From: a bacterium
GTDB lineage: Bacteria; Patescibacteriota; Minisyncoccia; Phycocordibacterales; Phycocordibacteraceae
Reading direction: 5' to 3'
DNA: 32,741 bases
Assembly (NCBI GenBank): GCA_021782715.1
Contig: JAJXUR010000001.1
Location: forward strand, 1-32,741
The position numbers were made by a program, and so were the translations under genes. The notes beneath the pieces are model-generated. The model was given only the letters and a program-made list of their open reading frames with translations. It was not told where the DNA came from and did not search any database. How positions within the stretch are numbered: position 1 is the stretch's first letter; every line of letters starts with the position of its first letter. This document shows, piece by piece, positions 1 to 21,098 of this stretch.

Positions 1-14
1 GTATCATATAAATT

Positions 15-265
15 ATAGCGGGGTAGAGGAGAGCTGTGTCCCACAGGCGGGAGGGCAGTTGCAAAGCTTCCCGTAAGAAAAGTAGAATACATATAGCGGG
101 GTAGAGGAGAGTTGGTAATCCAAGCGGGAGGGCGAGTGCGAAGCTCTTCAGGTCATGATAGCTATAACATAGCGGGGTAGAGGAGAGCTGTGTCCCACAG
201 GCGGGAGGGCAGTTGCAAAGCTTCCCGTAAGAAAAGTAGAATACATATAGCGGGGTAGAGGAGAG
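15..265 (+). repeat. Tandem array of four copies of the 19-nt block ATAGCGGGGTAGAGGAGAG (2 leader nt plus tRNA-Met positions 1-17). Copies start at 15, 93, 169 and 247, giving a 76-78 nt period. The fourth copy is the real tRNA 5' end.
   Basis: Read directly. Units 15-92 and 169-246 are identical. Unit 93-168 differs after the 19-mer but keeps GCGGGAGGG, which resembles the anticodon-stem 5' strand. Each pseudo-unit replaces the D-arm 3' side with a small hairpin: CTGTG-TCC-CACAG or TTGG-TAAT-CCAA. Confidence 0.9.
213..242 (+). promoter_or_regulatory. Sigma70-like promoter TTGCAA-N18-TAGAAT, ending about 7 nt before tRNA position 1. An identical copy at 59-88 faces pseudo-unit 2.
   Basis: Hexamers and spacing read from the sequence. 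There is no experimental support. Confidence 0.45.
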
Positions 266-319
266 GTACCTCGGGAGGCTCATAACCTCCAGACGCCGGT
301 TCGATTCCGGCCCCCGCAA
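249..319 (+). tRNA. tRNA-Met, anticodon CAT, initiator-like; CCA is not encoded
   Basis: A manual cloverleaf fits. Acceptor is AGCGGGG/CCCCGCA with a 1:72 A.A mismatch. D stem is GAGG/CCTC with A11:T24. Anticodon arm is GGAGG-CTCATAA-CCTCC. Variable loop is 4 nt. T arm is GCCGG-TTCGATT-CCGGC. The 3' end CCGGCCCCCGCAAC matches my memory of E. coli tRNA-fMet. Only 2 of the 3 canonical G:C pairs are present at the base of the anticodon stem. Confidence 0.85.
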
Positions 320-390
320 CACGGTTGTGAGTCAGTGTCAAGTACCGTCCCCCATCAGAAATCTCTGAAATCGGGTACAGTACCGCTAGG
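320..390 (+). repeat. Partial copy (M1) of the module core, directly abutting the tRNA 3' end
   Basis: CACGGTTGTGA ... AGTACCG ... GGGTACAGTACCGCTAGG aligns with the cores at 2289, 3914 and 6018. Confidence 0.6.
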
Positions 391-430
391 CATGAAGCTC
401 CGAAAAATAAAAAAGCGCATGCAACACCAG

Positions 431-757
431 ATGAAATTATCGACAGAGCCTTTCAATCAGATTGCTTCTGGTGCGAAGGTCATTGAGTCGCGTCTCTTTG
501 ATGAGAAGCGCCAACAAATCGCGCTCGGTGATGAGATAGAGTTCAGTGAGAACGATCACCCAGAAAACAAGGTGCGTACGAAGGTTATCGGGCTTCTTCG
601 CTATCAATCGTTTAAAGACCTTTTCGCGGACCATGAGCCGGCGCTCTTTGGCGGCGAGAGCAGGGAGTTTCTCTTCAGTCAGATTAAACAATTCTATTCG
701 GACGAAGACGAGCAGAAGTATGGTGTCGTGGGCGTGCGAATCGAAAAACTTGACTAA
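431..757 (+). CDS. ASCH domain protein. ATG 431 is preferred, with ATG 419 as an alternative. The track start at 335 lies inside the repeat/tRNA trailer.
   Basis: MKLSTEPFNQIASGAKVIESRLFDEKRQ..GDEIEF resembles the ASCH (ASC-1 homology) N-terminus. The protein would be about 108 aa. Confidence 0.7.
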   Translation: MKLSTEPFNQIASGAKVIESRLFDEKRQQIALGDEIEFSENDHPENKVRTKVIGLLRYQSFKDLFADHEPALFGGESREFLFSQIKQFYSDEDEQKYGVVGVRIEKLD

Positions 758-778
758 GTGAGCATATTTCCGAAAAGA

Positions 779-817
779 ACACAGAAGCCGCGACGCACGT
801 CGCGGCTTCTGTGTTTG
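779..817 (+). terminator. Hairpin with a 16-bp perfect stem, ACACAGAAGCCGCGAC-GCAC-GTCGCGGCTTCTGTGT, followed by TTT
   Basis: Read directly. It lies 3' of the ASCH gene. The same stem recurs at 17454-17493. Confidence 0.6.
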
Positions 818-835
818 TCCAGTATCATTGCGTGT

Positions 836-1075
836 ATGAAGATCTACGCCGAAGTTGGGATTGGGAATGGCACGTTCTTCTCAACTGAATACGAAGATGG
901 TGATCGGGAATATCGAGTCTCAAGATTCGTGAGACCACCACGTGTAATGGAATATTATGTTCGTATTTGGATACGAAAGACGGTGTATATATTCTCGACT
1001 AACGAGGGTTTCAAGAAAGTCCCAAAAGATAAAACCAGATTCAAGCTCCTGTTTGGAGTGGGCGGCGTGCGTTAG
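836..1075 (+). CDS. Hypothetical small protein, 79 aa
   Basis: This is an ORF only. The track start at 758 would read through the terminator hairpin, so ATG 836 is preferred. Confidence 0.45.
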   Translation: MKIYAEVGIGNGTFFSTEYEDGDREYRVSRFVRPPRVMEYYVRIWIRKTVYIFSTNEGFKKVPKDKTRFKLLFGVGGVR

Positions 1076-1084
1076 TATAACAAT

Positions 1085-1720
1085 ATGATCAAGAGTATCT
1101 TCCTCCTCAGCATGATGAGCCCGCTCGATGAGAGTCTGCGCGAAGCGCTCGCCAGAGAGATTCTCAAGCGCGGCACGAAGGTGGCATATATATCTTCAAG
1201 TCCGCAGACTGGCGACCAACCATATTACCAATCCACCATTGCCGACTATACTGCCATTAGTCCCGACATCCGCATCGACTATTTCGACCTCTCAGATGCC
1301 TTTACGGATGAAATGCTTGCAGGACTTTCTTCCTATGCCGCCATCTATCTCTCGGGAGGGAATACGTTCACGTTCATGGATAGTGCACGGAAGCGCGGAC
1401 TCCAGACACTGCTTGAACAGCATCTAGCAAACGGTGGCGTCCTTGTCGGTGCGAGCGCAGGGAGCATTATGTGCACACCATCGATCGAGCTCGCGAAATT
1501 TGGTGACGAGAATGAGGTTGGCATGATCGACTTCTCGGGCTTCGGTTTTGTCGATTTCGAGTTTCATCCGCACTTCACGGGCGATCAGTACGAGCACATG
1601 CATCTTACAGAATACCAACGCACGCACGGGCGGGAGATTTATACATGCAAGGACGGAGCGGGGCTGCATGTTTCTGATTTAGGAGTAGAAGCATTTGGAA
1701 GTGTATCGAAGTATACTTAA
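1085..1720 (+). CDS. S51 family peptidase (peptidase E / cyanophycinase-like)
   Basis: LSGGNTF and VGASAGS motifs are typical of the S51 serine peptidase fold. Confidence 0.7.
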   Translation: MIKSIFLLSMMSPLDESLREALAREILKRGTKVAYISSSPQTGDQPYYQSTIADYTAISPDIRIDYFDLSDAFTDEMLAGLSSYAAIYLSGGNTFTFMDSARKRGLQTLLEQHLANGGVLVGASAGSIMCTPSIELAKFGDENEVGMIDFSGFGFVDFEFHPHFTGDQYEHMHLTEYQRTHGREIYTCKDGAGLHVSDLGVEAFGSVSKYT

Positions 1721-1724
1721 CAAT

Positions 1725-2099
1725 ATGGAAAAACAACCGACCAGCAATATGGAAAACAAAATAACCAACTCTGCCGAATATCTCGGTAAGACGGTTGCGA
1801 TAAAAATCGATCGACAGCTCGGGTCGAAGCACCCGAAGCACGGATTTGTGTATGAGCTCAACTATGGCTTCGTGCCAGATACTATCTCACCCGATGGAGA
1901 AGAACTCGATGCGTATTTGCTTGGCGTCGATACCCCTGTCGAGACATTTACGGGCGAGTGCATTGCGATTATTCACCGCACCAACGATGATGATGACAAA
2001 CTGATTGTCGTGCCAGAAGGGAATGTTTTTTCAGACGAAGAAATCCGCACGATGACGAATTTCCAAGAGCAATTCTTCAAATCAGAGATTGTGAGATAA
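1725..2099 (+). CDS. Inorganic diphosphatase-like protein (short family I PPase fold)
   Basis: NYGFVPDT..DGEELDAYLL...DDDDKLIVVP resembles the PPase core NYGFIPxT..DGDPLDxLVL..D.KIIAVP. ATG 1725 avoids overlap with the upstream gene. Confidence 0.5.
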   Translation: MEKQPTSNMENKITNSAEYLGKTVAIKIDRQLGSKHPKHGFVYELNYGFVPDTISPDGEELDAYLLGVDTPVETFTGECIAIIHRTNDDDDKLIVVPEGNVFSDEEIRTMTNFQEQFFKSEIVR

Positions 2100-2135
2100 A
2101 CATACATGATCTGATGTATAAGAATATCTGAGCAT

Positions 2136-2565
2136 GGGCGCGGGAATCGAACTATAGCGAGTAAGGTAAAAAATGGGGATAGGAATCGAACTCTAGCAAA
2201 TACGGGACGAAATCGTCGATTCGATTCGCGCCCCCGCAACAAACGAGCGAAGGCGAGTGCAGTGCCCAGCGCCAGCAGGCGGCGGGTGCACGGTTGTGAC
2301 GCCAGGAACCAGTACCGACAGGCATCAAAATTGGTACTGTACCGCTCAGGGTGTTCACCAGAAAAAGCTCGCAAATACAATGCGAGCTTTTTCTGTTATG
2401 TAGCATTTCCAACATATTTCCAGTTCGATTCCGGCTCTCGTATTCGGTGCAGTTTCGTGTCGCAATCACATCAAAATTGATCTGGTTTTGAGCAGGGGCA
2501 CAGGAATCGAACTGGCGAAAGAAAGTGAATACGCCGGTTCCTGACTTCCCGTCCTCCCGAGGGGT
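2136..2565 (+). repeat. Intergenic repeat module M2: tRNA-fragment head, tRNA 3'-end-like site, 117-nt core, and tail hairpin
   Basis: GGAATCGAAC (reverse complement of a T-loop) occurs at 2143, 2182 and 2503. TCGATTCGATTCGCGCCCCCGCAAC at 2215-2240 resembles the tRNA 3' end. The core at 2289-2405 is 115/117 identical to 3914-4030. Confidence 0.8.
2362..2392 (+). terminator. Intrinsic terminator AAAAAGCTCGCA-loop-TGCGAGCTTTTT
   Basis: 8-bp stem flanked by an A-run and a T-run. It closes the 117-nt core. Confidence 0.8.
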
Positions 2566-2597
2566 CAGTACAGTTTTAGGGTTGCCGGCAATGACCA

Positions 2598-2626
2598 TTG
2601 ACGATATGCATAATCCATGTTATCTT
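2598..2626 (+). promoter_or_regulatory. Promoter-like TTGACG-N17-(TGt)TATCTT upstream of the 2798 gene
   Basis: Hexamers and an extended -10 TG were read from the sequence. About 170 nt of structured leader follows. Confidence 0.45.
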
Positions 2627-2797
2627 AACGGCAGCTCTCAGGCTCTTTCCATCCCAAGAATCACTCCCCATGAAGCGAGCTTTGTGCGACCTATCTTTTA
2701 CAATTGTTATCGCAAGATAGCTAACTAGGTCGTACGCAGCTCGCCTCATGGGAGGACAGAGTCGCTCACCCGACGGTTCGGGACAAGGGATAACGTC

Positions 2798-3694
2798 ATG
2801 ACGACGATTACTCAAGCTGCACAAGCAACAGCCGGTCAAATCAAGCAGATCAACCGGTTTGGCTCCGACGCCATCGAGAAAGTCCTCGGTGAATTCGGCC
2901 TCGACAACCCTGGCGCTCAACGCGTCATCGAACACGGCGACGAATTCTCCGAAGCTATCCGTATCGCAGTGCTCGCCTCGCTCAAAGACCTGTCGGTCTT
3001 CGACAAGTACAAGAACGAAGAAGTATCCTCGACGTACGGCTACCTCTCTGGCTACAAGAAGCCGAAGAGTATCACCGAGCAGACCAACATCCTCCGTCAG
3101 ATGTTCCCTGGTATTGGCTTTGCCGACGAGAAGCTTGCCGAACGTGAAGTGCCGAAGAATGCCGACAACGGATGGTTCGCCATCCCGAAGTGGCAGTCGC
3201 TCGCACCAACCTATGGTGAAGCCGTCCAACTGGTGCTGAACAAACTCAATGAATCCCGTAACGGTGCGTTCTACAACTACCGCGAAGGTGAACTGGGTCC
3301 TGATCAGCTCCGCCAATCAGCGAAGACGGTAAGTATGTTCCAGAAGCTTGCTGAAGAGCAGAGCAAGTACGACATCCTTGTGGTCGCAGCCCAATTCGGC
3401 ATACGCCACCGTGGTCGCTCCGTTCGTCGTGTGCGTGAGATCCTGCTCGGCAACGAGTTTGGCCTCGGCGCATTTGCCGTCGGCATCATGCTCCTCACGC
3501 ATCCGGAACGTTTTCAGCACGACAATGACCTCTACATCGACTGCGCCGGCGACGAGTTCAAGCCGAGTGACGAGCACGAGTTCTCGCGCGCCCCGATCTG
3601 GAACTTCGACGACGACGAGCTCAAGTTCGACGCGTGCGGGGTCGGCAATGCGGACTTCAACTACGGCTCGGCTTCCGGCTTCCTTCCGCAGTGA
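2798..3694 (+). CDS. Hypothetical protein, 298 aa, no family recognised
   Basis: Long ORF with no predicted TM segments by eye. It is preceded by the M2 promoter and leader. Confidence 0.7.
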   Translation: MTTITQAAQATAGQIKQINRFGSDAIEKVLGEFGLDNPGAQRVIEHGDEFSEAIRIAVLASLKDLSVFDKYKNEEVSSTYGYLSGYKKPKSITEQTNILRQMFPGIGFADEKLAEREVPKNADNGWFAIPKWQSLAPTYGEAVQLVLNKLNESRNGAFYNYREGELGPDQLRQSAKTVSMFQKLAEEQSKYDILVVAAQFGIRHRGRSVRRVREILLGNEFGLGAFAVGIMLLTHPERFQHDNDLYIDCAGDEFKPSDEHEFSRAPIWNFDDDELKFDACGVGNADFNYGSASGFLPQ

Positions 3695-3766
3695 TTCTTG
3701 CTGCTTGAGTTCTTGGGTCTTTTGCAATTTAATTCTTTTGCTTGATCCTTGGGCTCGAAAATTTTC

Positions 3767-3805
3767 GGGGTTATTCACTTGCTGGATAACCCCGATTTCT
3801 TTTTA
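3767..3805 (+). terminator. Intrinsic terminator GGGGTTAT-loop-ATAACCCC followed by a T-rich tract
   Basis: Read directly, 3' of the 2798-3694 gene. Confidence 0.7.
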
Positions 3806-3808
3806 TAA

Positions 3809-4190
3809 TGGGCGTCGGAATCGAACCGCAGCGAGCAAAGTAAAAAATGGGGGCAGGAATCGAACTTGAGTATCTAGGCCGTAGAAAGTCCAGTTCGATT
3901 ATGGACCCGGCAACACGGTTGTGACGCCAGGAACCAGTACCGACAGGCATCAAAACTGGTACTGTACCGCTCAGGGTGTTCACCAGAAAAAGCTCGCAAA
4001 TACCATGCGAGCTTTTTCTGTTATGTAGCAAATACAACAGATATTCAGTTCGATTCCGATTCTCGTATTGAACGACGTTTCGTGTTGCAATCACATCCAA
4101 GTCGGCCTGATTTTAAGCGGGGGGCGCGGGAATCGAACTGGCGAAACTCAGTGTCTACAGCGGTTCCCGATCCCCGTCCTTCCGTGGGTG
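3809..4190 (+). repeat. Intergenic repeat module M3, same architecture as M2
   Basis: GGAATCGAAC occurs at 3817, 3856 and 4129. CAGTTCGATTATGGACCCGGCAAC at 3891-3914 resembles the tRNA 3' end. The core spans 3914-4030 and the tail hairpin spans 4127-4169. Confidence 0.8.
3987..4017 (+). terminator. Intrinsic terminator, copy of 2362-2392 with one change in the loop
   Basis: Read directly. Confidence 0.8.
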
Positions 4191-4217
4191 GCGAGAATAT
4201 TCACCGTTCAACTTATG

Positions 4218-4226
4218 TGGTATACT
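4218..4226 (+). promoter_or_regulatory. Extended -10 element TGgTATACT upstream of the ABC-F gene
   Basis: Same position and form as the TGtTATCTT element in M2. No good -35 is present. Confidence 0.4.
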
Positions 4227-4296
4227 AAACTCACTCCAATGAAGTATTACGCATAAGCTTTTATCAGCTAATCACGGGGCCGACACACGCCCCGGT

Positions 4297-5904
4297 ATGC
4301 GTATGCAAATACTTCTCTCTACAAAAGACATAGGGTTCGAACTTCCGGATAAAACGCTATTTAAAGCGCTTACGTTTCCCCTTTCCAAAGGCGATCGCAT
4401 AGGACTCATTGGAAAGAACGGCGAAGGGAAAACGACGATTCTTAAGATCCTGGCTAAGGTGGCAGAACCAAGCTCTGGGCACGTGAATGTCATCGGGAAA
4501 GTCCATTATGTCCCGCAACTGGATTTCGCGCTTTTCGAGCAGGCTGACACGGTGGTTGTTTTTCTCAAAAGCAAAGGTATCTCATGGCCCCTCGTACAGG
4601 CGTCACTCGGTCGACTCTTTGGTGTGCCGAGTATTACTAAGGATAAAGAAATGCGAGCACTATCTGGAGGCGAGCTTGCCAAGCTGTTGATTGCCATAGC
4701 CGATACGGATAGGCCAGATATCCTCTTGCTCGATGAGCCGACTAACCATCTCGATGTCGAAGGTCTGGAAGTCTTGAAGAACTACCTACTTACGTTTAAG
4801 GGCGCGTTCGTTGTGGTATCTCATGACCCTTTGTTCTTGGATCATGTCGTATCTGCCATTTGGGAGATCGACATGGGAAGCCTGTCCCGCTTTGGTGGCA
4901 ACTACTCGGAGTACCAGGAACAGAAGCGACTAGCCGATGAAGCCCGTGAACGCGATCTTGAAGCAGCAAAGAAAGACGTGAAGAAAGCACGCAGAGCAAT
5001 TGAAGCTCGCGAGACTCGGGTCGTTCGTGCCGCACGTACCGGGAGGCTTGCTAAACTTGAGCCAAGTCGGGACAAAATGGCCGAGGCGCACCGCACCAAC
5101 ATGGCCGAACGGGAGGCGGGGAAACTGAAACGCCGACAAGACCGCATGATGGAAGAGCGACAGCAACACGTCTCGCAATTGGAAAGACCGAAACGAAAGA
5201 CGGCACATCTTGATCTTGCTGTCGGCGCGGAGCGTTCTAAGCGGATGCTCGTTAGCGTGTCTGACGGCCTGCTTGGAGTGGGAAATACGAATCTAATTCA
5301 GGATATCAGTCTGCGTATAGAATTTGGCGACCGCATCGTCTTCACTGGTAAGAATGGCTCGGGGAAGAGCCTCCTCGTTAAGGCACTCATGGGTATGCCA
5401 GGCCCGTTCTCGTTCGAAGGGACAATCAGGCGTGGAGAAAATCTCGATGCGGTGTATATGGATCAGAAATATCAATCTGTTGATCCCGAACTCTCCATTC
5501 TCGAGAATCTTCTGCAGGCGAATCCACACTTAGATGAAAATGCCGCTCGAGGTCAGCTCGGCAAGTTTCTTTTTGGCGTGGATGTGAGCATCAAGAAAAA
5601 GTCTGGGACACTTTCGGGCGGAGAAATCGCTCGTCTTGTCCTTGCGCAGGTTACGTCTAAACCGATTGATCTGCTCGTTCTTGATGAACCTACGAACAAT
5701 CTTGATATTGAAACGCTAGATATTATCGCTGACGCCCTCCGGGATTTTTCAGGTGCGCTAGTAGTTGTATCGCACAACGTTCACTTTCTGTCGCGACTCG
5801 GGATTAATCGTGCATACGTTATTAGTGAAGAGCGATTGAAGGAGATGAAGTTCTTGCCTGAGAACGAAGTTGAATTTTATTCTGAGCTTGTTGCTGCGGA
5901 ATAA
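4297..5904 (+). CDS. ABC-F family ATPase: two ABC domains joined by a charged linker, no TM domain
   Basis: Walker A motifs are GKNGEGKT and GKNGSGKS. LSGGE occurs twice. Walker B motifs are LLLDEPTNHLD and LVLDEPTNNLD. The interdomain linker is rich in K/R/E. Confidence 0.85.
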   Translation: MRMQILLSTKDIGFELPDKTLFKALTFPLSKGDRIGLIGKNGEGKTTILKILAKVAEPSSGHVNVIGKVHYVPQLDFALFEQADTVVVFLKSKGISWPLVQASLGRLFGVPSITKDKEMRALSGGELAKLLIAIADTDRPDILLLDEPTNHLDVEGLEVLKNYLLTFKGAFVVVSHDPLFLDHVVSAIWEIDMGSLSRFGGNYSEYQEQKRLADEARERDLEAAKKDVKKARRAIEARETRVVRAARTGRLAKLEPSRDKMAEAHRTNMAEREAGKLKRRQDRMMEERQQHVSQLERPKRKTAHLDLAVGAERSKRMLVSVSDGLLGVGNTNLIQDISLRIEFGDRIVFTGKNGSGKSLLVKALMGMPGPFSFEGTIRRGENLDAVYMDQKYQSVDPELSILENLLQANPHLDENAARGQLGKFLFGVDVSIKKKSGTLSGGEIARLVLAQVTSKPIDLLVLDEPTNNLDIETLDIIADALRDFSGALVVVSHNVHFLSRLGINRAYVISEERLKEMKFLPENEVEFYSELVAAE

Positions 5905-5907
5905 AGA

Positions 5908-6047
5908 AAAAATGGGGGCAGGAATCGAACTGTAGCGAGCAAAGCAAAAAATGGGAGCAGGGATCGAACTCTAGCAAATACGGGGCGAAATCGTCGATTC
6001 GATTATGGACCCAGCAACACGGTTGTGACGCCAGGAACCAGTACCGG
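5908..6047 (+). repeat. Intergenic repeat module M4: head plus the first 30 nt of the core
   Basis: GGAATCGAAC occurs at 5921 and the variant GGGATCGAAC at 5960. The head is near-identical to the M2 head (CTCTAGCAAATACGGGrCGAAATCGTCGATTCGATT). The site and core start are near-identical to M3. Confidence 0.75.
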
Positions 6048-6088
6048 CTCGCCTAAAGGTCAGTACGGTATCGGCAGGCATCACGTAT

Positions 6089-6125
6089 GCAAAGATCGCG
6101 ACAATTGTCGCGATCTTTGCATTTT
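6089..6125 (+). terminator. Perfect 14-bp hairpin GCAAAGATCGCGAC-AATT-GTCGCGATCTTTGC followed by ATTTT
   Basis: Read directly. It ends 18 nt before the ATG at 6143. Confidence 0.75.
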
Positions 6126-6142
6126 AGAGATAAAGTTGGAGT

Positions 6143-7264
6143 ATGGATCACGAACAAACTATAGATTCGACCCTGATCACAAAGGACGAGCTGAAGGGGA
6201 AATTAATTGAGTTTTTCCAGATTGCAAAAGCATCTGGAGATTTGAGTGCTGGTATTCGAAGGTATCTAGAGTTTGTGAAAGACAACTATCACAGCCTCGA
6301 TGCGGAGGCGAAACTCGTGGGAGACAAGGCATTTGATGCTATAGGAGAAGCGACTGCGGAGGCTCTAAATAAAATGCCCGATAGTGTCGAGAAAAGACGT
6401 CTTGCTAGACTGCACGCAAAATCTCAAGGTCGACATTGGGACATAAAGGAGCTGTCAAAATCTCTCGAGGCGGGAACGCATCTCAAAGAGAAAATCTTGC
6501 AGGAGACCGATGATTTCTTCTTTGAGCATGTCCAACTGATTGCAGATTTTATACATGATGTAATCAGCGGTTCGGTTCACGGTCCAGATCTGGCGCTCCT
6601 GAGTCTGTATTGCTCAGCTCTTGATGAGTTGATTGTTTCCAGGCATTTGACTCAGCACGGCTATACACCGCAAGCCTTAGCACATCAGCGCACAGTTCAC
6701 GAAATCTTAGATCAAATAGAACTTTTTAGCAAAAAGCCGGAATACTTGGATTTGTGGGCGAGCGAGACCTCAGAGGACAGAAAGAAGGCACGTTGGGGAT
6801 TACGCCCGAAAGGGGTTCGTGAAAAACTCGGTAGGGAGGGTTATGACCCAATCTTCAGCTTCTTATCTGAAATGGGTTCACACTCCACAATGAAATACAT
6901 TCAGTCGAAAGTTTTTATGCAAAGACCGCATAAGGATGGCGACGTCAAAGGCGAAGCAAAGATTTTCGTCGGCGGAAGTCCGCGAACCGATACGCTCATG
7001 GTTGCCAGTACAGGGTTAGTACAATCAGTCATGGGCACCCTCACCTCCTTCAGTGTCACCTATCAAGATTTTCTCTTGGCTGAAGAAGGGATTCAGGTAT
7101 TGCAAAGCGCATTTGAAAAATATAAAGGATATATGCTCAGGAACTTTGTCGATTGGATGAGGGCGGAAGGGGCGAATGTGTCTTCTCTGGAGACTTACAT
7201 TAAAAGCCTGGACCAGGAGACATTAATGCGAATGTCAGAGGAAAAGTCTTCCGGATCTATTTAG
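6143..7264 (+). CDS. Hypothetical protein, 373 aa, with a vague resemblance to DUF5677-type helical proteins
   Basis: Long ORF with a GGAG 8 nt upstream. The family guess comes from memory only. Confidence 0.7.
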   Translation: MDHEQTIDSTLITKDELKGKLIEFFQIAKASGDLSAGIRRYLEFVKDNYHSLDAEAKLVGDKAFDAIGEATAEALNKMPDSVEKRRLARLHAKSQGRHWDIKELSKSLEAGTHLKEKILQETDDFFFEHVQLIADFIHDVISGSVHGPDLALLSLYCSALDELIVSRHLTQHGYTPQALAHQRTVHEILDQIELFSKKPEYLDLWASETSEDRKKARWGLRPKGVREKLGREGYDPIFSFLSEMGSHSTMKYIQSKVFMQRPHKDGDVKGEAKIFVGGSPRTDTLMVASTGLVQSVMGTLTSFSVTYQDFLLAEEGIQVLQSAFEKYKGYMLRNFVDWMRAEGANVSSLETYIKSLDQETLMRMSEEKSSGSI

Positions 7265-7413
7265 TCTGCAGCAAGTGATACGTTTTTTCCTTTAAGAACA
7301 AGTTTCCCGCGCAACTGCTCGAGCAGTTGTCGCTTCTCCTCGATCGTGCCTGCTTCAAGTAGATACTTCGCGTAGCGCTTGATATCCACGCCCTTCGGCG
7401 AGACTATTTTCGT
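7261..7413 (-). pseudogene. C-terminal gene remnant of about 50 codons with no start codon
   Basis: The minus frame reads TKIVSPKGVDIKRYAKYLLEAGTIEEKRQLLEQLRGKLVLKGKNVSLAAD*. It is bounded upstream by TGA. Its stop overlaps the stop of the 6143 gene. Confidence 0.35.
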
Positions 7414-7500
7414 TCACGAGATTTTCTTGAAGTCCAGACTCCAGTTTTGTGCAAACAATATAACGGAGGCAGATCATATGTCGTAACGACCGAGTATTTT

Positions 7501-7704
7501 GGTGGAACGTTAGGCTTCAACAGTGGGACTATGGAAGAAAGAATGCAGGCACTCGTCGGTTCGGGGTTTGAGCGCATATTTCAGATAGGTAGCGTGTTCA
7601 GAAGCTCAGAGGAGCTGACTTTCGTAGAGGGGTACGCGGCGCATATGGATTGGGAAACAGGCCAATCTATGATTCGGAATATGTGTCGCTACGTAGCAAA
7701 AAAA
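7501..7704 (+). pseudogene. Fragment of a class II aminoacyl-tRNA synthetase (Lys/Asn/Asp-type, motif 2 region)
   Basis: GFERIFQIGSVFRSSEE..TFVEGYAAHMDW resembles GFERVFEIGRNFRNEG...EFTMLEFYQAY. The fragment is truncated on both sides and lacks the catalytic loop. Confidence 0.45.
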
Positions 7705-8135
7705 ATGGTTGAAGACGAATATTCTTCCGTGCACGGCGTGCATGCGTTCTGTTTTGTGGGTGATCAACTTGTCATCGTGTATTCTGACAAGAAAGGGTAT
7801 TGGACGCCGCCAGGTGGCGGGGTAGAGCCGGGCGAGACAGTTGAGGAAGCGATTGTGCGCGAAGTGTTCGAAGAAACAAATATGCGCGTGCTCAAGCAAC
7901 GTGTCATCGGCTACCAAGAAGTCTCTGAACCGCATCGGCTCACCGTGCAGGTACGCGCGGTCTGTATCGTCGAGCGCCAATCGGACCCTTTGTCGCAGAT
8001 GCCGACTCCAGCGATGGCGAAGGCGTCACCGAGATAAGACTTATCGATCCGAAGGATATAAAACAGTACTTTGATTGGGGCGAAGTCGGTGAGCATGTGC
8101 TTGTTCGCGCACTGGAATTAAAAAGTCTACTCTGA
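7705..8135 (+). pseudogene. NUDIX hydrolase with a frameshift near 7975-7990, or an assembly indel
   Basis: The Nudix box is GGGVEPGETVEEAIVREVFEETN. After ..AVCIVER the protein-like sequence continues in another frame as GPFVADADSSDGEGVTEIRLIDPKDIKQYFDWGEVGEHVLVRALELKSLL*, with its stop at 8133-8135. Confidence 0.6.
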
Positions 8136-8160
8136 TTCTTCATTGCTTAATGAGAGGTAA

Positions 8161-8199
8161 AATGAACCACGGCCGGCTTTTAGCCGGCCGTGGTTCATT
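8161..8199. terminator. Perfect 17-bp hairpin AATGAACCACGGCCGGC-loop-GCCGGCCGTGGTTCATT
   Basis: Read directly. The track start at 8190 lies inside it. Confidence 0.75.
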
Positions 8200-8219
8200 G
8201 TTGGTGTACTATACGAAAT

Positions 8220-8858
8220 ATGAACAAATCAGAGGTGAGCCTCTCTTTTATTTACAGCAAAGAAAGGGAAGTGGCGCGAGTTTTGGAAACCATTCAGTGG
8301 CTGCCGTGGTATCGCGATCATAAGTATCCAGATAATTTTGCAAAGCTGCCGCAAGAAATAACGGAGATGAGTTCTGTGGAAGAGATAGAGAAGGCTGTTT
8401 CCATCGAATATATGGAACAAGATTTTCGTGATATCGAAGAATATGTTCTAAGTCAGTGGGGAGGTTTCCAGGATGGATTCGAAAAGATGCGAGCGATAAA
8501 AGACCTTCGGTTAAGTGATTCTTATGAAGTTAGTTTAACGAGATATGGAAGTGGCGGGAGTTACAATGCCGCTAGAAATTCGCTCATCGTTAATATAAGA
8601 AATTCCTCTCAAAGAGAGCGGATTGCCGGGACGATAGTTCATGAAATCGTCCATATGACCATTCAGTATCTTATTGATGCTCATTCTGTTTCTCATTGGA
8701 GAAAGGAAGCGTTAGTCGACCATTTGTTTGCGTATTTCTTCCCGACGCTACATATGAGACAGTCGATTCCCGAGGACGTGACCATTGTCGATGATTCATT
8801 TAAGACTATGTTTCCTGATCTTGAGGAAATAGTTAAGACAATCAGCAATGCCCCATAA
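8220..8858 (+). CDS. Hypothetical protein with an HExxH (HEIVH) zinc-metalloprotease-like motif
   Basis: ORF from ATG 8220 with a TIVHEIVHMT motif. No family was recognised. Confidence 0.65.
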   Translation: MNKSEVSLSFIYSKEREVARVLETIQWLPWYRDHKYPDNFAKLPQEITEMSSVEEIEKAVSIEYMEQDFRDIEEYVLSQWGGFQDGFEKMRAIKDLRLSDSYEVSLTRYGSGGSYNAARNSLIVNIRNSSQRERIAGTIVHEIVHMTIQYLIDAHSVSHWRKEALVDHLFAYFFPTLHMRQSIPEDVTIVDDSFKTMFPDLEEIVKTISNAP

Positions 8859-8882
8859 AAATATTATTGCCTAATCTACAGG

Positions 8883-8916
8883 TATGGGTACGGGTACGGT
8901 ACCGGCCTGGGCAACA
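8883..8916 (+). repeat. Left 34-nt direct repeat flanking the copper operon
   Basis: TATGGGTACGGGTACGGTACCGGCCTGGGCAACA matches 13000-13033 at 30/34 positions. It is followed by CAGTCCGATTCCGAT..ATTGAATG, which is homologous to the M3 tail at 4046-4072. Confidence 0.7.
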
Positions 8917-8970
8917 ACATACTATCCAGTCCGATTCCGATATTGAATGTTCACTCAACAGTACTTGCTC

Positions 8971-8989
8971 TATACCCCTGGGGGGTATA
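8971..8989 (+). promoter_or_regulatory. Candidate CsoR operator, palindrome TATACCCC-TG-GGGGGTATA
   Basis: A GC-core inverted repeat of the TACCC..GGGTA type lies 11 nt upstream of the csoR ATG. Confidence 0.6.
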
Positions 8990-8999
8990 TGCTGCAGGG

Positions 9000-9275
9000 A
9001 TGAAGTACTTGCACGACGAAGGGAAGCAGAAGGTCATACGACGACTCAAGATCATCGAGGGCCAGATCCGAGGCCTGCAAGAGATGGTTGGGCAGGACAC
9101 CTACTGCATCGACATCATCACCCAGAGCTCCGCCGTGAAGCAGGCGCTTTCCGGTGTTGAGGACACGCTCATGGAAAATCACTTGAACCATTGCGTGCAC
9201 AAACAGATGACATCGGGCCAGACAGGGAAGGCAGTAGAAGAGGTCCTGAAGGTCTACAAACTTAAGAGAAAATAA
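9000..9275 (+). CDS. csoR: CsoR/RcnR family metal-sensing repressor
   Basis: The protein is 91 aa. [27 protein letters not shown] and the H..C ligand pattern are typical of the DUF156/CsoR family. Confidence 0.8.
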
Positions 9276-9276
9276 T

Positions 9277-11574
9277 ATGGAGTCACGCACCTACCGAGTC
9301 CAAGGAATGCATTGCGCCTCCTGCGCACACATCATCGAGAAAACGCTCAAGAAAGTCGAGGGCGTCCATTCCGTAGAAGTGAACTACGCTACAGAAGCGG
9401 CGAAAGTCTCCCATGATTCTGCAGTCACGAGTGCACAGGACCTTTCGAAGAAGATAGAGCCGCTCGGGTACTCGCTCGTCACCAATGCGCCATCAGCACA
9501 CGACATGGGAATGTCCGAAAGCGAACATGCAGCGCATCTCGGCCTTAATCAATCAAAAGCCGAGAAACTCGCAGAGCTTGCCACTATGAAGACCAAGGTA
9601 GTCACCGTTATGCCTATGGCAGCAGTTGCGATTGTCATTATGGCGTGGAATATCCTTGCAGAGTTTGACGCCGTCGCGCCACTTTCTCGATCCCTAAATG
9701 ACTCTCTCAATATATTACTCGCGCTTATGGCAACCTACGCGCTTTTTGTCGTCGGGAAGCCGTACCTCATGGGGTTCTACCGGTTTCTGCGTTACGGTGT
9801 CGCAAACATGGACACGCTCATCGGCATCGGTACGTCAGCGGCATTTCTCTATAGTATTATCATCACGGTCTTTCGTGAGGCGGTACGCCCTTACGTAAAC
9901 GTCAGTGTCACGTATTTCGATGTGGCTATTGTTGTGATTGCGTTTATTACGTTCGGGAAGTACCTTGAGGCGCGCGCGAAGATAAAGACAGGCGACGCCA
10001 TAGAGAAACTCCTCATGCTCCAAGCAAAAACAGCACTTGTCATTCGAGACGGTATTGAGGTGGAGATACCTGTCGAGCAGGTTGTGCATGGCGACCTCAT
10101 CATCGTAAAGCCAGCTGGAAAGATCCCTGTCGATGGTGTCCTCACTGGAGGATCGTCTTATGTGGACGAGTCGATGGTGTCGGGAGAGCCGGTGCCAGTC
10201 GAGAAACGTGTGGGTGATACGGTGGTCGCAGGGACATTGAACACCACCGGTTCGTTTACTTTCAGGGCAACGAAGGTCGGCTCGGAGACACTTCTGGCGC
10301 ACATCATACATATGGTGGAAGAGGCGCAAGGAAGTAAGGCGCCAATCCAAGCTTTGGCTGATAAAATTTCCGGCGTCTTTGTCCCTGCGGTACTTGCTAT
10401 AGCATTTCTTTCGCTCGGTGCATGGCTTTTCTTCGGTATTCCGTCGCTCGGGTTTGCACAGGCGTTGTCATTCGGTCTCGTGTCATTCGTTGGCGTCCTC
10501 GTGATTGCTTGTCCGTGCGCGCTTGGGCTTGCCACGCCGACAGCGATTATCGTGGGTGTTGGCAAGGGGGCAAAAGAAGGAATTCTCATCAAGGACGCTG
10601 CGACTCTAGAGAAGCTTCACCAGGTAGACGTGGTTGTCGTTGATAAAACAGGAACCATTACGAAAGGTAAGCCAGAACTTGTCTCGATACAAAACCAAAG
10701 TGACAAAAGCGAAGAAGAGCTCGTTGCCATCCTTGCCTCTCTTGAAAGTAAGTCAGAGCATCCGATTGCAAGCGCGATTGTCTCGTATGCAAAGACAGGT
10801 TCTGTCGCCCTTCGGCAAGTCGAGAACTTTAGCGTGCTCAAAGGAAGAGGGGTACGTGGCAATATCGATGGTGTGGAATATTACGCGGGTAATCCGCGTC
10901 TTATCCTCGAATTGTCGCTTGCGCTCGATATGAGTGCGATAGAACGCGAAACCCATGAAGGAAAAACTCCGGTAATTCTTACCACTACTACAAAAGTACT
11001 CGGCATCGTGCTGGTGGCTGATGCGATAAAGCCAGAAGCGGAAGAGGCGGTTACGAGTCTCCATAAGCTCGGTATACGCGTCGTGATGCTCACCGGCGAT
11101 AATGCGCAAACTGCCGACTTCATTGCAAAGCAGGTAGGTATAGACGAAATCGTCGCCGAAGTTATGCCCGAGGACAAGCTGAACAAGATTAAAGAACTGC
11201 AGGCGCAGGGTTGTGTGGTCGCCATGGCGGGAGACGGCATCAACGATGCGCCAGCGCTCGCACAAGCGGACGTGGGCATCGCGATGGCGACGGGAACCGA
11301 TGTTGCCATAGAGAGCGCCGGCATGACGCTTCTTCATGGTGATATCTCGAAGATCGTCAAAGCGATACGCCTCTCGAAGTTAACGATGCATGGTATCAAG
11401 CAGAATCTCTTTTTTGCCTTCGCGTACAATATCATCGGCATTCCGCTTGCAAGCGGACTCTTCTATCCGGTGTTCGGGTGGCTTTTGTCGCCAGTGTTTG
11501 CTGGATTTGCGATGGCCATGTCGAGCGTATCGGTTGTCGGGAATTCGCTACGTCTTAAAACTAAACAACTATGA
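9277..11574 (+). CDS. copA: Cu(I)-translocating P1B-type ATPase
   Basis: It has an N-terminal HMA domain (GMHCASC), the TM motif [10 protein letters not shown], and the DKTGTIT, SEHP and GDGINDAP motifs. Confidence 0.95.
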
Positions 11575-12593
11575 ACACCACCACACACGTATTTCACGTT
11601 AAGGGAATGCACTGCAAAGCGTGCACCGTCCTCATTGAGGAAATGTTTAACGAACTTCCAAATGTAGAGAGCGCGCACGTGTCACTTTCAGGACAGCAGG
11701 TGACGGTAGCGGGGGAGTTTACCAATACGCCGGAGAAAATAGCCGACGAACTCACGAAACTCGTACAGAGCCATGGGTACAGTATCGCGGTTGAGAAAAG
11801 CGCCCATAACGCAGGGTGGGGAGACTTCGTCTATGCGCTTCCTGTGGCGCTCGTTCTCATTGCTGGATTCATTCTGCTACAAAAGGCAGGACTGACTTCG
11901 CTTATTACTAGCTCGAAGGTGAGCTACGGCACAGCGTTCCTCATAGGGCTTATAGCGTCAGTTTCCTCGTGTCTCGCCATAGTCGGAGGTTTGGTGCTGT
12001 CTCTCTCGGCTAGTTCGGCGAAAGAGGGCGGGACCTGGCGCACGCCAGTACTCTTTCATGTGGGGCGCCTCGGGGGATTCTTTATTCTGGGTGGATTGGT
12101 TGGCGTAATTGGAAACTCGCTTCACCTCGGGCTCATGGCTAACGTGATATTGAGTAGTATCGTTGCACTCGTCATGCTTATTCTCGGCATTAACCTGCTC
12201 GACGTCTCCCATTTCACTCAAAGACTGCAAGTCACGCTCCCTACGCGCTTCTCGAAGCACATTGTCGCGGGGAGCAAGAAGGATCACTACCTCGCGCCGC
12301 TTTTAATCGGTGTCGGCACGTTCTTTCTGCCGTGCGGATTCACGCAGTCGATGCAGCTTTATGCACTTTCAACCGGTAGTTTCTCGCAAGGAGCCCTAAC
12401 GATGCTCGTCTTTGCACTCGGCACTTTCCCGGTGCTTGCGTTCCTTTCCTTCGGATCGCTCAATATTGTGCACAAACCATGGAAAGGGATTTTCTTCAAG
12501 ACGGCTGGCATAATTGTCATAGCGCTTGCAGTTCTGAACCTCAGTAGTGCGCTTGCTACGGCTGGAATTATTAACCCACTTTTCAACTTCTAG
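11571..12593 (+). CDS. HMA-domain membrane protein (DsbD_2 / TauE-SafE-like permease fold)
   Basis: It has an N-terminal GMHCKAC metal-binding domain and about 6 TM segments with SSC and FLPCG motifs. Its start overlaps the copA stop in an ATGA. Confidence 0.7.
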
Positions 12594-12594
12594 T

Positions 12595-12990
12595 ATGAAC
12601 GTACGAATAATCATTGCTCTTGCTGCCAGTGCGGTACTTATCGGATGGGCGTTCTGGTTCGTTTCAGCAAAACCTCAAGAGAATGGCGCGGGCGTGACGG
12701 CGCCGACGGCTACCATAGTTGATGGTAAACAGTTCGTTGATATCACCGCGAAGGGCGGTTACTCTCCGCGAGTGGTGGTAGCAAAAGCCGGAATACCAAC
12801 GATCTTGCGCGTTACCACGAACGGCACCTTCGACTGCTCGGCTAGCGTGGTAATCCCGAAGCTCTCATACCAGAAATTCCTGCAGCCGTCTGGCACGGAA
12901 GACATTGCTATCTCTGCTGAACAAGCCCAAGGAACCCTGCAGGGGCTGTGCGCGATGGGGATGTATAACTTCCAAATCAAATTCGAATGA
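12595..12990 (+). CDS. Membrane-anchored cupredoxin-like protein
   Basis: It has an N-terminal TM segment, a beta-rich C-terminus and a C..CAMGM motif. This type of protein commonly neighbours copper operons. ATG 12595 immediately follows the upstream stop. Confidence 0.55.
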   Translation: MNVRIIIALAASAVLIGWAFWFVSAKPQENGAGVTAPTATIVDGKQFVDITAKGGYSPRVVVAKAGIPTILRVTTNGTFDCSASVVIPKLSYQKFLQPSGTEDIAISAEQAQGTLQGLCAMGMYNFQIKFE

Positions 12991-12999
12991 GTCTTGGAA

Positions 13000-13033
13000 T
13001 ATGGGTACGGGTACCGTACCGCCCCGAGCAACA
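13000..13033 (+). repeat. Right 34-nt direct repeat. It is also the most distal decayed copy of the tRNA 3' end.
   Basis: CCGCCCCGAGCAACACG compares with the tRNA sequence CCGGCCCCCGCAACACG. It sits at the GC-content jump. Confidence 0.7.
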
Positions 13034-13034
13034 C

Positions 13035-13074
13035 GCAAAGCGAAGCCCGGCGCAAGCCGGGTCTTCGCATTTGC
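13035..13074 (+). terminator. Long imperfect hairpin GCAAAGCGAAGCCCGGC-GCAA-GCCGGGTCTTCGCATTTGC
   Basis: Read directly. It has one bulge and no strong T tract. Confidence 0.6.
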
Positions 13075-13126
13075 GCAGCGGTCGGGCGCGTGATATAGTT
13101 CGAATATCTAAGTAATATATACTCGC

Positions 13127-14398
13127 ATGCGTGAACAATCCACGACGGTTCTGACCTATCTCACGAAGCCTGTTGTCGTCATCGGCGGCGCGCTTATCAT
13201 CGCTGCCGTTGCCATCGGCTTTGCTCTTGCCGCGAGCCCTGTCGCGCCGACCGGGCAATACACGGCGGCCGTCATGGCTCCGATCACGGCGCAGGGCGGC
13301 GCGAGCTCGGAGCTCTCCTTCCAGGTGCCGGGGCAGATTGTCTCTACTCCCGTCGCTATCGGACAGAGGGTAAATGACGGGGAGACGCTCGTCGTGCTCG
13401 ATCAATCATCGCTTCTCGCTACGCGCGCCGGAGCTGTAGCGAATCTCGAAGCGGCACAAGCGCGCCTCGCGGCGCTCAAGGCCGGCACGCGCCCCGAGCA
13501 GCTTGCGATAGATCAGACCGCTGTCACGCAGGCAGCGAATACACTCACGAATGCTCTCGCCGCAGCCTATACGAATGCCGATGATGCGGTGCATGCGAAA
13601 GCCGATCAGCTCTTCACCAATCCGCGCAATGCCTCGGCGCAGCTCACACTCCTCGTGGCGGACGCGATGTTGGTGAATCGCATTCAGGCCGAGCGCGTCA
13701 CGCTTGAGCCGGTGCTCGCGTCCTGGAACGCTACTCTTGCAGCAGCATCAGACGATCCCGAGAGTGCCGTGGCTTCTTCCGAAGCGAATGTGAAGACGGT
13801 TACCGCATTTCTCGATGACCTCACTACGGCCCTTGCCGAGTCATCGCCGAGCGGCGCTATCTCTGCGGCGACTATCGTCGGCTATCAGACGAGTGTGAAC
13901 GCCGGACGCTTGAATATGATTGCTGCGCTCTCCAGCATCGTCACGGCCGACACGGCGTACAAGGCGGCGACTGGCGCACTCACGCTCGCACAGGCGGGGG
14001 CGACGCAGAACGATATCGATGCGCAGCAGGCGGTCGTCGATGCCGCAGCAGCAGCGCTGCGCGGCGTCGACGTGGCGCTACGCGAATCAGTGCTCACGGC
14101 ACCTTTTGCCGGTACTATCACGGTGATGAACGCGCGTCTCGGGCAGACGGTCGTCCCGGGGCAGACCCTCGTCTCAATCGAATCGTCAGGCGGGAGCAAG
14201 GCGAGCGCGCTCGTCGTCCCCTCAAGCAGCGTCATCACCGATGGCAATCAGGCCTTCGTGTTTGTGAAGGACGGATCCGCGGCACCAGCGAAGACGTCGG
14301 TCACGACCGGCCTCGTGAGCGCCACCGGCATGACGGAAATCGTCTCGGGGCTCAGTGCGGGGCAGGAAGTGCTCACGTTCGGTACTGATAACAAATGA
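13127..14398 (+). CDS. Efflux periplasmic adaptor / HlyD-type membrane fusion protein
   Basis: It has an N-terminal TM segment, an Ala-rich coiled-coil middle region, and a C-terminal beta-barrel motif VLTAPFAGTI... Confidence 0.75.
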   Translation: MREQSTTVLTYLTKPVVVIGGALIIAAVAIGFALAASPVAPTGQYTAAVMAPITAQGGASSELSFQVPGQIVSTPVAIGQRVNDGETLVVLDQSSLLATRAGAVANLEAAQARLAALKAGTRPEQLAIDQTAVTQAANTLTNALAAAYTNADDAVHAKADQLFTNPRNASAQLTLLVADAMLVNRIQAERVTLEPVLASWNATLAAASDDPESAVASSEANVKTVTAFLDDLTTALAESSPSGAISAATIVGYQTSVNAGRLNMIAALSSIVTADTAYKAATGALTLAQAGATQNDIDAQQAVVDAAAAALRGVDVALRESVLTAPFAGTITVMNARLGQTVVPGQTLVSIESSGGSKASALVVPSSSVITDGNQAFVFVKDGSAAPAKTSVTTGLVSATGMTEIVSGLSAGQEVLTFGTDNK

Positions 14399-19920: not shown

Positions 19921-21098
19921 CCGAGCACTTCGCGTACAGATTGCGCGATCACCCGTGCCTCATCCGTATGCATGACGCGGATGGTCGCGCGACCGGACTC
20001 AGGGGAGATGACGGCAGCGTGCGCCGCATTCTGCTCCTCGTCGAGTTCAATACCGAGGAATTCTAGCCCGCTACAAATCCGGGAGCGCAGCAGGGATGAT
20101 TTCTCCCCGATGCCGCCGGCAAAAATAAGCGTATCAACACCACCAAGCGCTGCCGCGTATGCGCCAATCTCTTTCTTCACCTGATAGCAGAACAGCCTGA
20201 CCGCTTCGGCGGCGCGTACGTCTTCGTCCTCGAGAGTGATGAGGTCGTACATGTCGGAGGTAGTCTCGGAAATGCCGAGGAGGCCCGATTCGAGCGTGAC
20301 CATTTTGTCGAATGCTTCCACGGTCATCTTCTCGGTCTGCATGAAATACCGCGCGAGCCCGGGATCGATGTCTCCCGAACGGGTACTCATCACGATGCCG
20401 CCGGCGGGCGTGAAGCCCATGCTCGTGTCGACGGGCTTGCCCGCAGAAACCGCAGCAAGACTCGCGCCGCTGCCGAGATGGGCGAGGATGATGCGTCCGT
20501 GCGCCGCGCTCTCGCCGCCAACGCGCTTCAATTCTTCCATAAGGTATGTGTAGGAGAGCCCGTGGAAACCGTAGCGCCGCAGTCCTTGTGCCTCATAGCG
20601 GCGCGGTATCGAGAGCAGTTGTGCCGTGCGTGGCATGTCGTGATGGAATGCGGTATCGAAACAGGCCACTTGTGGTAGATGGGGGAAGTGTCGCTGGAAT
20701 GCTTCGGCGAGCCGGATCTCCCCTGGCGCGTGCTCAGGGTCGAGCGCCATGAGTGAGCGCAGCTCATCGAGGACGTCCGGCGTTATCTGTACCGGGGCGT
20801 TGTAGACTGGGCCGCCGTGTACGATGCGATGCCCAACGGCGACGAGGGAAGTATGGAGGCCTTGCTCCTCGATGAAATCCATAAGCAGCACCGCGGCTGC
20901 CGCGTGTGTGGCTGCGGCGATCGGTTGCGAAAGGTCGCCGGCGAGAACCGAGCCAGCCGCGCAGAGCGTCGTGCCCGAGAGCCCTATCCTCTCGATACTA
21001 CCGTCGAGCACCTGGGCGAGCGAGCCAGCACGGAACAAAGCGAATTTAATGCTTGAGGAGCCGGCATTGATAGTCAGCAGATATGGGTCGGGCTTCAT
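19914..21098 (-). CDS. ackA: Acetate kinase
   Basis: The protein is 394 aa with [15 protein letters not shown] at the N-terminus, the HRIVHGG motif and an ASKHA fold. It lies immediately downstream of xfp and overlaps it by 7 nt. Confidence 0.9.

Follow-up and report, generated by a model that had tools for sequence, protein, structure and literature searches.

A stack of leftover mobile elements at an initiator tRNA gene of Patescibacteria and its likely link to a family of large serine recombinases

How ultra-small, host-dependent Patescibacteria, the candidate phyla radiation (CPR), gain accessory genes is poorly understood. A stretch of 32,741 nt from one such genome (GenBank assembly GCA_021782715.1, contig JAJXUR010000001.1; hereafter the window) raises this question in concrete form: a tRNA-Met gene is followed by 12.8 kb of low-GC DNA in which pieces resembling the tRNA 3' end recur. 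A sequence-only reading had seen here an island formed by serial site-specific insertion into the tRNA gene, partitioned by decayed copies of the tRNA end and lacking a recombinase. Our analysis retains the island and its serial growth and revises the account of the sites and of the enzyme. Five or six leftover mobile elements, which entered serially at the last bases of the tRNA, make up the low-GC stretch. With a probability of roughly two in three, we regard it as an accretion island: circular elements would have integrated singly and in succession at the end of the initiator tRNA gene through site-specific recombination, most likely catalyzed by a large serine recombinase (LSR).

The anchor is a single tRNA-Met(CAT) gene at 249-320 (+), called by both ARAGORN and Rfam (58.9 bits). 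It ends in the initiator-type sequence ...CCCCCGCAAC with the CCA not encoded, and arrays in locus L008 and in numerous further CPR loci are anchored by the identical tRNA. The left half of the insertion site, an attB-like B arm, is provided by the final bases of the gene, GCAAC (316-320). GC content in 1-kb windows is 0.44-0.54 over positions 1-13000, 0.57 at 12501-13500 and 0.55-0.65 afterwards, or about 0.49 up to 13.0 kb versus about 0.60 past it; the boundary anticipated near 13.05 kb falls at 13.03 kb in the computed profile. On the other side the window covers only 248 nt upstream of the tRNA, too little to place the island's left edge.

Within the island seven junctions can be set to the base, all of the form ...C|A... 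(320|321, 2240|2241, 2289|2290, 3914|3915, 6018|6019, 8915|8916 and 13032|13033), and all site copies are in direct orientation. The pattern of tRNA 3' end and trailer, TTCGATTNNGGNCCCNGCAACACGGTTGTGA, matches without mismatch at 300, 3894 and 5998, and a second pattern, GGGTACNGTACCGNCNNNGGCAAC, does so at 8892 and 13009. Shuffled sequences (100 for the first pattern) give an expectation of 0.00 for both, so that the similarity lies above background, and the site positions first read by eye were correct to a few bases. A weaker copy at 2214-2250 is 73% identical across 37 nt, whereas the copies at 8901 and 13017 have only GCAAC in common with the tRNA and constitute a separate 34-nt repeat class (family D13). 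The repeats are parts of modules of 108-400 nt (2134-2563, 3808-4183 and 5912-6123), and the first internal site is split, with a 49-nt segment (2241-2289) between GCAAC and ACGGTTGTGA. Behind the last site stands the predicted hairpin, GC-rich and located at 13046-13061.

A metagenome contig from a sister strain captures one difference in such an array. From window position 316 on, this contig (ERZ27236847:k141_723044; loci L001, L002 and L281) and the window share 99.94% identity over 11,405 nt, with seven mismatches in 11.4 kb between the window and L001 and a match that runs through to 24.4 kb. Left of GCAAC, where the window has its tRNA, L001 has unrelated DNA with a GC content of 0.42-0.46 that ends in TTATGGGTACGGGTACCGTACCGCCGCGGGCAAC and encodes a ParB_N+N6_N4 methylase, a 164-aa helix-turn-helix protein matching small terminase subunits (TerS), and a trypsin-like protein. 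The sister strain carries an extra element, E0, between the tRNA and the first element of the window, E1, joined exactly at GCAAC|A. Presence or absence of DNA bounded by a site had been set beforehand as the test of serial insertion at the tRNA 3' end, and it is seen here between nearly identical sequences. More distant members of the window's lineage (L008, L011 and L013) have the same tRNA-fMet and HlyD-MFS flank around a low-GC array of 8-10 kb, in which the same sites separate other cassettes (NUDIX, YibE/F-ZIP-Fur, other P-type ATPases, isochorismatase). The 22 loci fetched from several CPR classes agree in the genes that precede tRNA-fMet (DNA ligase LigA, GatC, GatA and a 190-aa membrane protein) and differ among genomes in what comes after it.

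The anatomy of the sites is informative about what was joined. Only GCAAC|A is common to all of them, and C|A is the sole invariant pair across the junction types. To its right lies an arm that a 25-mer search with ACGGTTGTGACGCCAGGAACCAGTA recovered in 44 stretches of the genome collection, all from Patescibacteria and none from a viral contig (the 25-mer was specific; a 15-mer scan of the collection gave mostly chance matches). In most of these stretches the right arm directly follows tRNA-fMet. Its first 28 nt (ACGGTTGTGACGCCAGGAACCAGTACCG) are invariant in 25 diverse copies and are followed by a variable stretch and then by an invariant GTAC-N-GTACCG. The consensus of the 25 copies folds with -4.6 kcal/mol and 0 compensatory pairs (RNAalifold); because 28 nt are invariant without such pairs, the right arm looks like a protein-binding DNA site and not like an RNA fold. 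A reading of the trailer as a structured RNA or leader was rejected, as the Rfam Thr_leader hits are sub-threshold and really terminators and RNAalifold gives no covariation.

Among the left arms, three classes can be told apart that are unrelated to one another. In class i, a module of about 110 nt, a look-alike of the T-arm and acceptor is preceded by two inverted GGGGCAGGAATCGAAC motifs, class ii is TATGGGTACGGGTACCGTACCGCCnnGGGCAAC, and class iii reads ...GCAGGCGGCGGGTGC; the tRNA-like repeats belong to class i only. These differing left arms meet differing right arms, always at C|A, which argues that the internal sites are conserved element ends. The idea of decaying copies of the tRNA end does not stand: the class i modules are 85-92% identical between genomes, and the three classes share only GCAAC.

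Which enzyme made these junctions? That no recombinase is encoded here holds for an intact gene in the window. The sole tblastn match in the window, at 7389-7270(-), consists of 40 residues with 80% identity to residues 405-444 of the LSR of locus L175 (E 1.3e-13), with a stop codon just upstream. At the DNA level it shares 75-85% identity with the LSR gene 3' ends of all 14 matching loci that were fetched (about ten distinct contigs). This truncated pseudogene (7270..7389, minus strand) comprises the last 40 codons only and spans none of the Resolvase, Recombinase and Zn_ribbon_recom domains. Judged by these matches, the island holds the apparent stump of its recombinase gene, in canonical orientation, convergent with the tRNA like the intact copies elsewhere, in the class ii-ended element E4. 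It is also the one exception to the claim that all coding sequences lie on the strand of the tRNA, a claim that is correct for the credible genes between the sites.

Intact homologues stand beside the same sites in other genomes. A scan of the array loci for the motif YxRxSTxxQ led to one protein cluster, the LSR, whose intact members match Resolvase (2.9e-21), Recombinase (5.1e-14) and Zn_ribbon_recom (1.6e-08) in Pfam. In 13 fetched loci (L163, L166, L171, L175, L176, L178, L197, L199, L200, L201, L283, L284 and L285) they are found downstream of tRNA-fMet and its right arm, convergent with the tRNA and within the low-GC island rather than at its edge; since L163/L201, L166/L199 and L171/L200 share contigs, these represent about ten distinct genomes or assemblies. 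Searches with phmmer seeds and motif scans, limited in sensitivity, found no tyrosine recombinase or integrase, small resolvase, Y1 or other transposase or reverse transcriptase in about 55 array loci, and neither the rest of the window nor its extensions gave a recombinase match in Pfam. Serine recombinases need only 2 bp of crossover identity, which fits a shared core of 5-6 bases. Taken together, the short common core and the lack of a tyrosine integrase in these searches make a serine recombinase the better fit.

The association extends well beyond the initiator tRNA. At least 468 relatives of the LSR occur in the species-level genome collection, in many CPR classes, and the protein collection holds at least 7,974 clusters (90% identity) at E<=1e-80. 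In 45 of the 74 loci with enough downstream sequence, a convergent tRNA gene lies within 6 kb downstream of the LSR stop codon, in nine loci with the tRNA end 108-136 nt from the LSR, and any tRNA within 6 kb upstream was seen in only four loci. All of the closest LSRs (72-94% identity) follow tRNA-fMet and the right arm; the partners of more distant LSRs are tRNA-Ser, Gly, Leu, His, Arg, Gln or Asp, and each of these tRNAs has a conserved trailer of its own. Among named models the best relatives of the LSR are the SCCmec recombinase CcrB (2.9e-31), XisF, CcrC and CcrA, all far below the cut-offs, and the nearest solved structures are those of SPbeta SprA and the TP901-1 integrase.

In about 34 of the 88 loci with enough flank, genes for the ParB-methylase, a TerS-like protein and often a large terminase subunit (TerL) precede the LSR gene in the same orientation. 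Some complete methylase-TerS-TerL-LSR units measure only about 5 kb, as in L288, and no capsid or tail genes were noticed in these modules. Of this set, only the methylase and TerS remain in E0 of the sister strain, and in L001 and L188 the methylase gene begins 430-650 nt downstream of the class ii arm. The module of methylase and terminase genes suggests that these elements are phage-derived or satellite-like; 33 members of the LSR family occur in IMG/VR contigs, and the modules of about 5 kb are present in such contigs as well as in related loci. Such compact modules beside tRNA genes are also observed in L201 (7952-11329), L287, L296 and other LSR loci, and the methylase family alone comprises at least 5,177 clusters.

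On this basis we propose that circular elements carrying (left arm)-CA-(right arm) would be integrated at ...GCAA-C|A-CGG... by an LSR, most likely the Patescibacteria-wide family of about 445 aa. The invariant 28 nt of the right arm and the GTAC-rich left arm of class ii would be the putative recombinase half-sites. That an LSR catalyzes the joining, with C|A as the crossover dinucleotide, we infer from the anatomy of the sites and from the association of gene and tRNA. The incoming right arm is equivalent to the displaced one, so that the tRNA end would stay a usable target and arrays could grow. The same anatomy would place the newest element beside the tRNA and push older ones outward, E0 of the sister strain being an example. 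The genes of this LSR family are usually found within such islands, pointing toward the tRNA and often preceded by the co-oriented module of methylase, small and large terminase. In the window, later deletions would have taken the methylase, terminase and LSR genes and left the cargo, including copper resistance, ABC-F, NUDIX, peptidase and other genes. With the mobility genes lost and 40 LSR codons left, the array is non-autonomous, a degraded and probably immobile copy, whose elements could move only with an LSR supplied in trans, for instance by an element like E0.

Several observations weigh against this proposal. An intact LSR is absent from the window, from 3.4 kb leftward in the sister strain and from 8 kb rightward, and no far-side junction (attR) was recognized within 10 kb past the intact LSRs of L199, L200, L201, L283 and L285. 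An empty site, with the tRNA followed directly by the hairpin behind 13033 and the HlyD gene, was looked for among relatives and not found; those with the HlyD flank have arrays or contigs that are too short. It is not obvious that a single enzyme would use three unrelated left-arm classes, and the dyad symmetry of the attP-like junctions is weak (10.5 of 25). Class i mimics the 3' half of the tRNA, with the T-stem kept by compensatory changes, and insertion by a serine recombinase should not duplicate tRNA sequence. Finally, E5 begins with a truncated trailer instead of a canonical right arm. A second recombinase family, or the capture of attL by imprecise excision, is possible.

The class i arms are the main attraction of a classical tRNA island, in which tyrosine integrases crossed over in the T-loop, the T-arm-like left arms are attP or attR cores and the integrase genes have since been lost. 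They keep an inverted repeat, GTCCA/TGGAC, around TTCGATT, like the cores of integrases that target the T-loop, and hybrid forms exist, for example GTCCAG-TTCGATT-CCGACCCCCGCAAC in L163 at 5298. However, the breakpoint between the strains is at GCAAC and not in the T-loop, the arms of classes ii and iii have no T-loop, the remnant inside the island is that of an LSR, and no tyrosine recombinase turned up in the array loci or, by Pfam, in the tested genes. We consider this history the least probable of those weighed here. Scarcely better placed, and likewise very improbable, is a shuffling of cassettes by homologous recombination or natural transformation between the conserved trailers of about 275 nt, for which no dedicated site-specific enzyme would be needed. 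In its favor, the array has long repeats (108-400 nt) that resemble each other at 85-90%, and assemblies break at them; yet different left and right arms are always joined at ..CAAC|A, including partners that have no homology past 5-6 bases (the tRNA and the first cassette of L008, class ii and the start at 8916, class ii and the native hairpin).

A more serious competitor, although still an unlikely one, accepts the LSR and departs from our proposal in holding that the locus is an integron-like platform in current use. The tRNA end and the right arm would act as a self-regenerating attB, and cassettes without an LSR would be inserted and excised by one whose gene lies at another place in the genome or in another member of the community. 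The difference between the sister strains is very recent (seven mismatches in the surrounding 11.4 kb), the same right arms stand before different genes in different genomes, and attP-like element junctions (class ii plus right arm) are found in at least ten distinct cases; integration and excision would both be of the attB x attP type and need no directionality factor. Against current use, the cassettes here are decayed (a stump is left of an LSR gene, and the trailer at 8916 is truncated), the sites do not delimit the ASCH-S51 block in L191, no LSR is known in this genome, and the assembled contigs show neither circular cassette forms nor alternative junctions. A true integron was rejected: the sites misfit the R''/R' attC consensus, show no hairpin covariation and come without IntI, and on the side corresponding to attI, the genes upstream of the tRNA are those for LigA, GatC, GatA and the 190-aa membrane protein, with no tyrosine recombinase in 55 loci. 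Single-strand transposition of the IS200/IS605 type was discarded too; the hairpin spacing is suggestive, but no TnpA-like open reading frame (ORF) was found (best E 0.86) and the right-arm hairpin has no covariation.

The accretion island can be followed element by element, with all features on the plus strand apart from the LSR pseudogene. E1 (321..2240) opens with a variant right arm (321-391), encodes an ASCH protein (392-757), DUF3977 (758-1075), a peptidase S51 (1085-1720) and a pyrophosphatase-like protein (1695-2099), and ends with a left arm mimicking the T-arm (2134-2240) that closes on GCAAC. It is followed by the 49-nt mini-segment (2241..2289), whose end is the class iii left arm, also present in L196. 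E2 (2290..3914) consists of a right arm and conserved trailer with a terminator (2290-2563), a gene of unknown function (298 aa, 2798-3694) and a class i left arm (3808-3914); in more than 20 CPR loci, tRNA-fMet is followed by sequence that has 75-89% identity to the beginning of E2 (2289-2563). E3 (3915..6018) has a right arm and trailer (3915-4183), a class i left arm (5912-6018) and between them a gene for a ribosomal-protection-like ABC-F ATPase (4297-5904; NCBIfam NF000355, 392.5 bits versus a cut-off of 380). This is an antibiotic-resistance-type gene inside a CPR island.

E4 (6019..8915), the apparent remnant of a recombinase-bearing element, extends from a right arm and terminator (6019-6130) to a class ii left arm (8883-8915). 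Besides the LSR pseudogene it contains a 373-aa gene (6143-7264), a NUDIX gene (7447-8037) and a 222-aa gene (8190-8858). The 373-aa gene has no homology to the neighbors of LSR genes, and no remnants of methylase, TerS or TerL were found in the window. E5 (8916..13032) is a copper-resistance block with genes for CsoR (8943-9275), the P-type ATPase CopA (9277-11574), an HMA+DsbD_2 protein (11571-12593) and a cupredoxin (12547-12990); the first bases of E5 (8916-8950) correspond to an interior segment of the long trailer (4036-4070), and its class ii left arm lies at 13000-13032. Behind the array comes a segment (13033..13075) that includes the hairpin and is probably the native tRNA trailer, or B' arm, pushed away by the insertions. 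Homology to the relative L009 resumes at 13065. Then follow host-type GC and the HlyD/YknX-like gene (13127-14398, 423 aa), with relatives in the Patescibacteria/CPR (Paceibacterota, Kaiserbacteria, Parcubacteria).

Some further observations concern the array and its surroundings. Independent assemblies break exactly at the E3|E4 junction (L003 starts at window position 6019) and in the LSR remnant (L282 starts at 7292), and such breaks are expected if the repeats are multi-copy or heterogeneous in the population. A 148-aa ORF at 2152-2598(-), called as a gene in the ENA contig, overlaps a site module and spans a variable junction. It has no family hit, clusters with ORFs of eight loci only through DNA conservation, and is probably spurious. 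The host flank at 17614-21098 encodes a phosphoketolase (XFP) and an acetate kinase, and the host GC of about 0.60 is high for Patescibacteria.

Upstream of the tRNA and outside the island proper lie three tandem units of 77 nt each (15..245, +), every one of which combines the initial 19 nt of the tRNA with a short hairpin, GCGGGAGGGC and a promoter-like TTGCAA-N18-TAGAAT. Similar units precede tRNA-fMet in L008 (1661-1737), L159 (about 108-187), L285 and L111; the hairpin arms vary and stay complementary (CTGTG/CACAG, TTGG/CCAA, TCGCG/CGCGA, CCGTG/TACGG), and the units have no Rfam match. The membrane protein of about 190 aa encoded directly upstream of tRNA-fMet (L008 1048-1623 and 21 other loci, cluster c1) ends in a C-terminal WEAHKVRNQIAHEGS motif (Rx4H, HEPN-like). 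It was considered as a hidden recombinase and dismissed, given its membrane-protein character, its Rx4H motif and the lack of any Pfam match. In many Patescibacteria a group I intron interrupts the anticodon loop of the initiator tRNA at one of two insertion points, before or after CAT. Such intron-bearing genes, which ARAGORN missed, are located in L158 (6671-6885, minus strand) and L179 (1027-1280, minus strand), and by sequence the intron is also present in L162, L166, L168, L173, L176, L181, L183, L184, L189, L194 and L197.

Among known systems, the composite staphylococcal cassette chromosome islands (SCC, SCCmec), which use CcrAB or CcrC at the 3' end of rlmH/orfX, come close in several respects. 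They share an LSR as the likely enzyme, the 3' end of a conserved housekeeping gene as the target, tandem arrays parted by short direct repeats, resistance cargo, and members without a recombinase (pseudo-SCC) that rely on one in trans; CcrB, CcrC and CcrA are also among the closest named NCBIfam models for the CPR enzyme. In contrast, the target is a tRNA gene end here and a protein gene there, the hosts here are Patescibacteria, the LSR gene of CPR is single and often accompanied by ParB-methylase and terminase genes, and the right arm is a 28-nt invariant block. A score of 108.7 bits with the Ccr model against a cut-off of 900 places the CPR enzyme in another LSR lineage.

The tycheposons and tRNA islands of Prochlorococcus resemble the locus in their streamlined host genome, tRNA-anchored accretion, degenerate remnants and partial tRNA-like repeats, in cargo that reflects the environment, and in satellite-like members with terS. 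Tyrosine recombinases are used by 910 of 937 tycheposon-type elements, leaving partial tRNAs (bioRxiv 10.1101/2020.12.28.424599), whereas the enzyme linked to the locus studied here is an LSR, two of the three classes of arms match the tRNA over only about 5-6 bases, and a replication module was not seen. With integrons and clusters of attC sites lacking an integrase (CALINs), the array has in common ordered small cassettes on the same strand between recombination sites, growth at one fixed site and, in the window, the lack of an integrase. It differs in having no IntI, in sites that are conserved in sequence and not in hairpin structure, in a tRNA end instead of attI as the anchor, and in several 'cassettes' that are multi-gene and contain remains of mobility genes. 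Cis-mobilizable elements (CIMEs) related to integrative and conjugative elements such as ICESt1 and ICESt3 of Streptococcus thermophilus, at tRNA or fda sites, are att-bounded and non-autonomous, stand in tandem with an integrase-bearing element and are mobilized in cis or trans. The tandem, att-bounded, non-autonomous organization is shared with them, while tyrosine integrases and conjugative elements are involved there and no conjugation genes were seen here. In the open-access literature we found no description of LSR-linked tRNA islands, integrons or serine recombinases in Patescibacteria, and in the searchable literature genomic islands of this group are treated with generic predictors only, with tRNA, integrase and cassettes unmentioned.

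The family behind the array is more interesting than the degraded example in the window. The locus indicates a single conserved hotspot, LigA-GatCA-tRNA-fMet with a variable array behind it, and a single, very large family of recombinases whose genes lie at tRNA 3' ends in many CPR classes. LSRs with defined short targets are sought as genome-engineering tools, and a family with natural, predictable targets at tRNA ends and a putative half-site of 28 invariant nucleotides offers directly testable att sites. A wider idea, which we put forward as speculative and rather doubtful, is that of gene capture across Patescibacteria: minimal methylase-TerS-TerL-LSR elements, a new family of phage satellites, would target specific tRNA ends, the right arm would regenerate the target in an attI-like manner, and cassettes without an LSR would be captured and released with no directionality factor. 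If such a capture system exists, it could be a main route of gene gain in ultra-small genomes.

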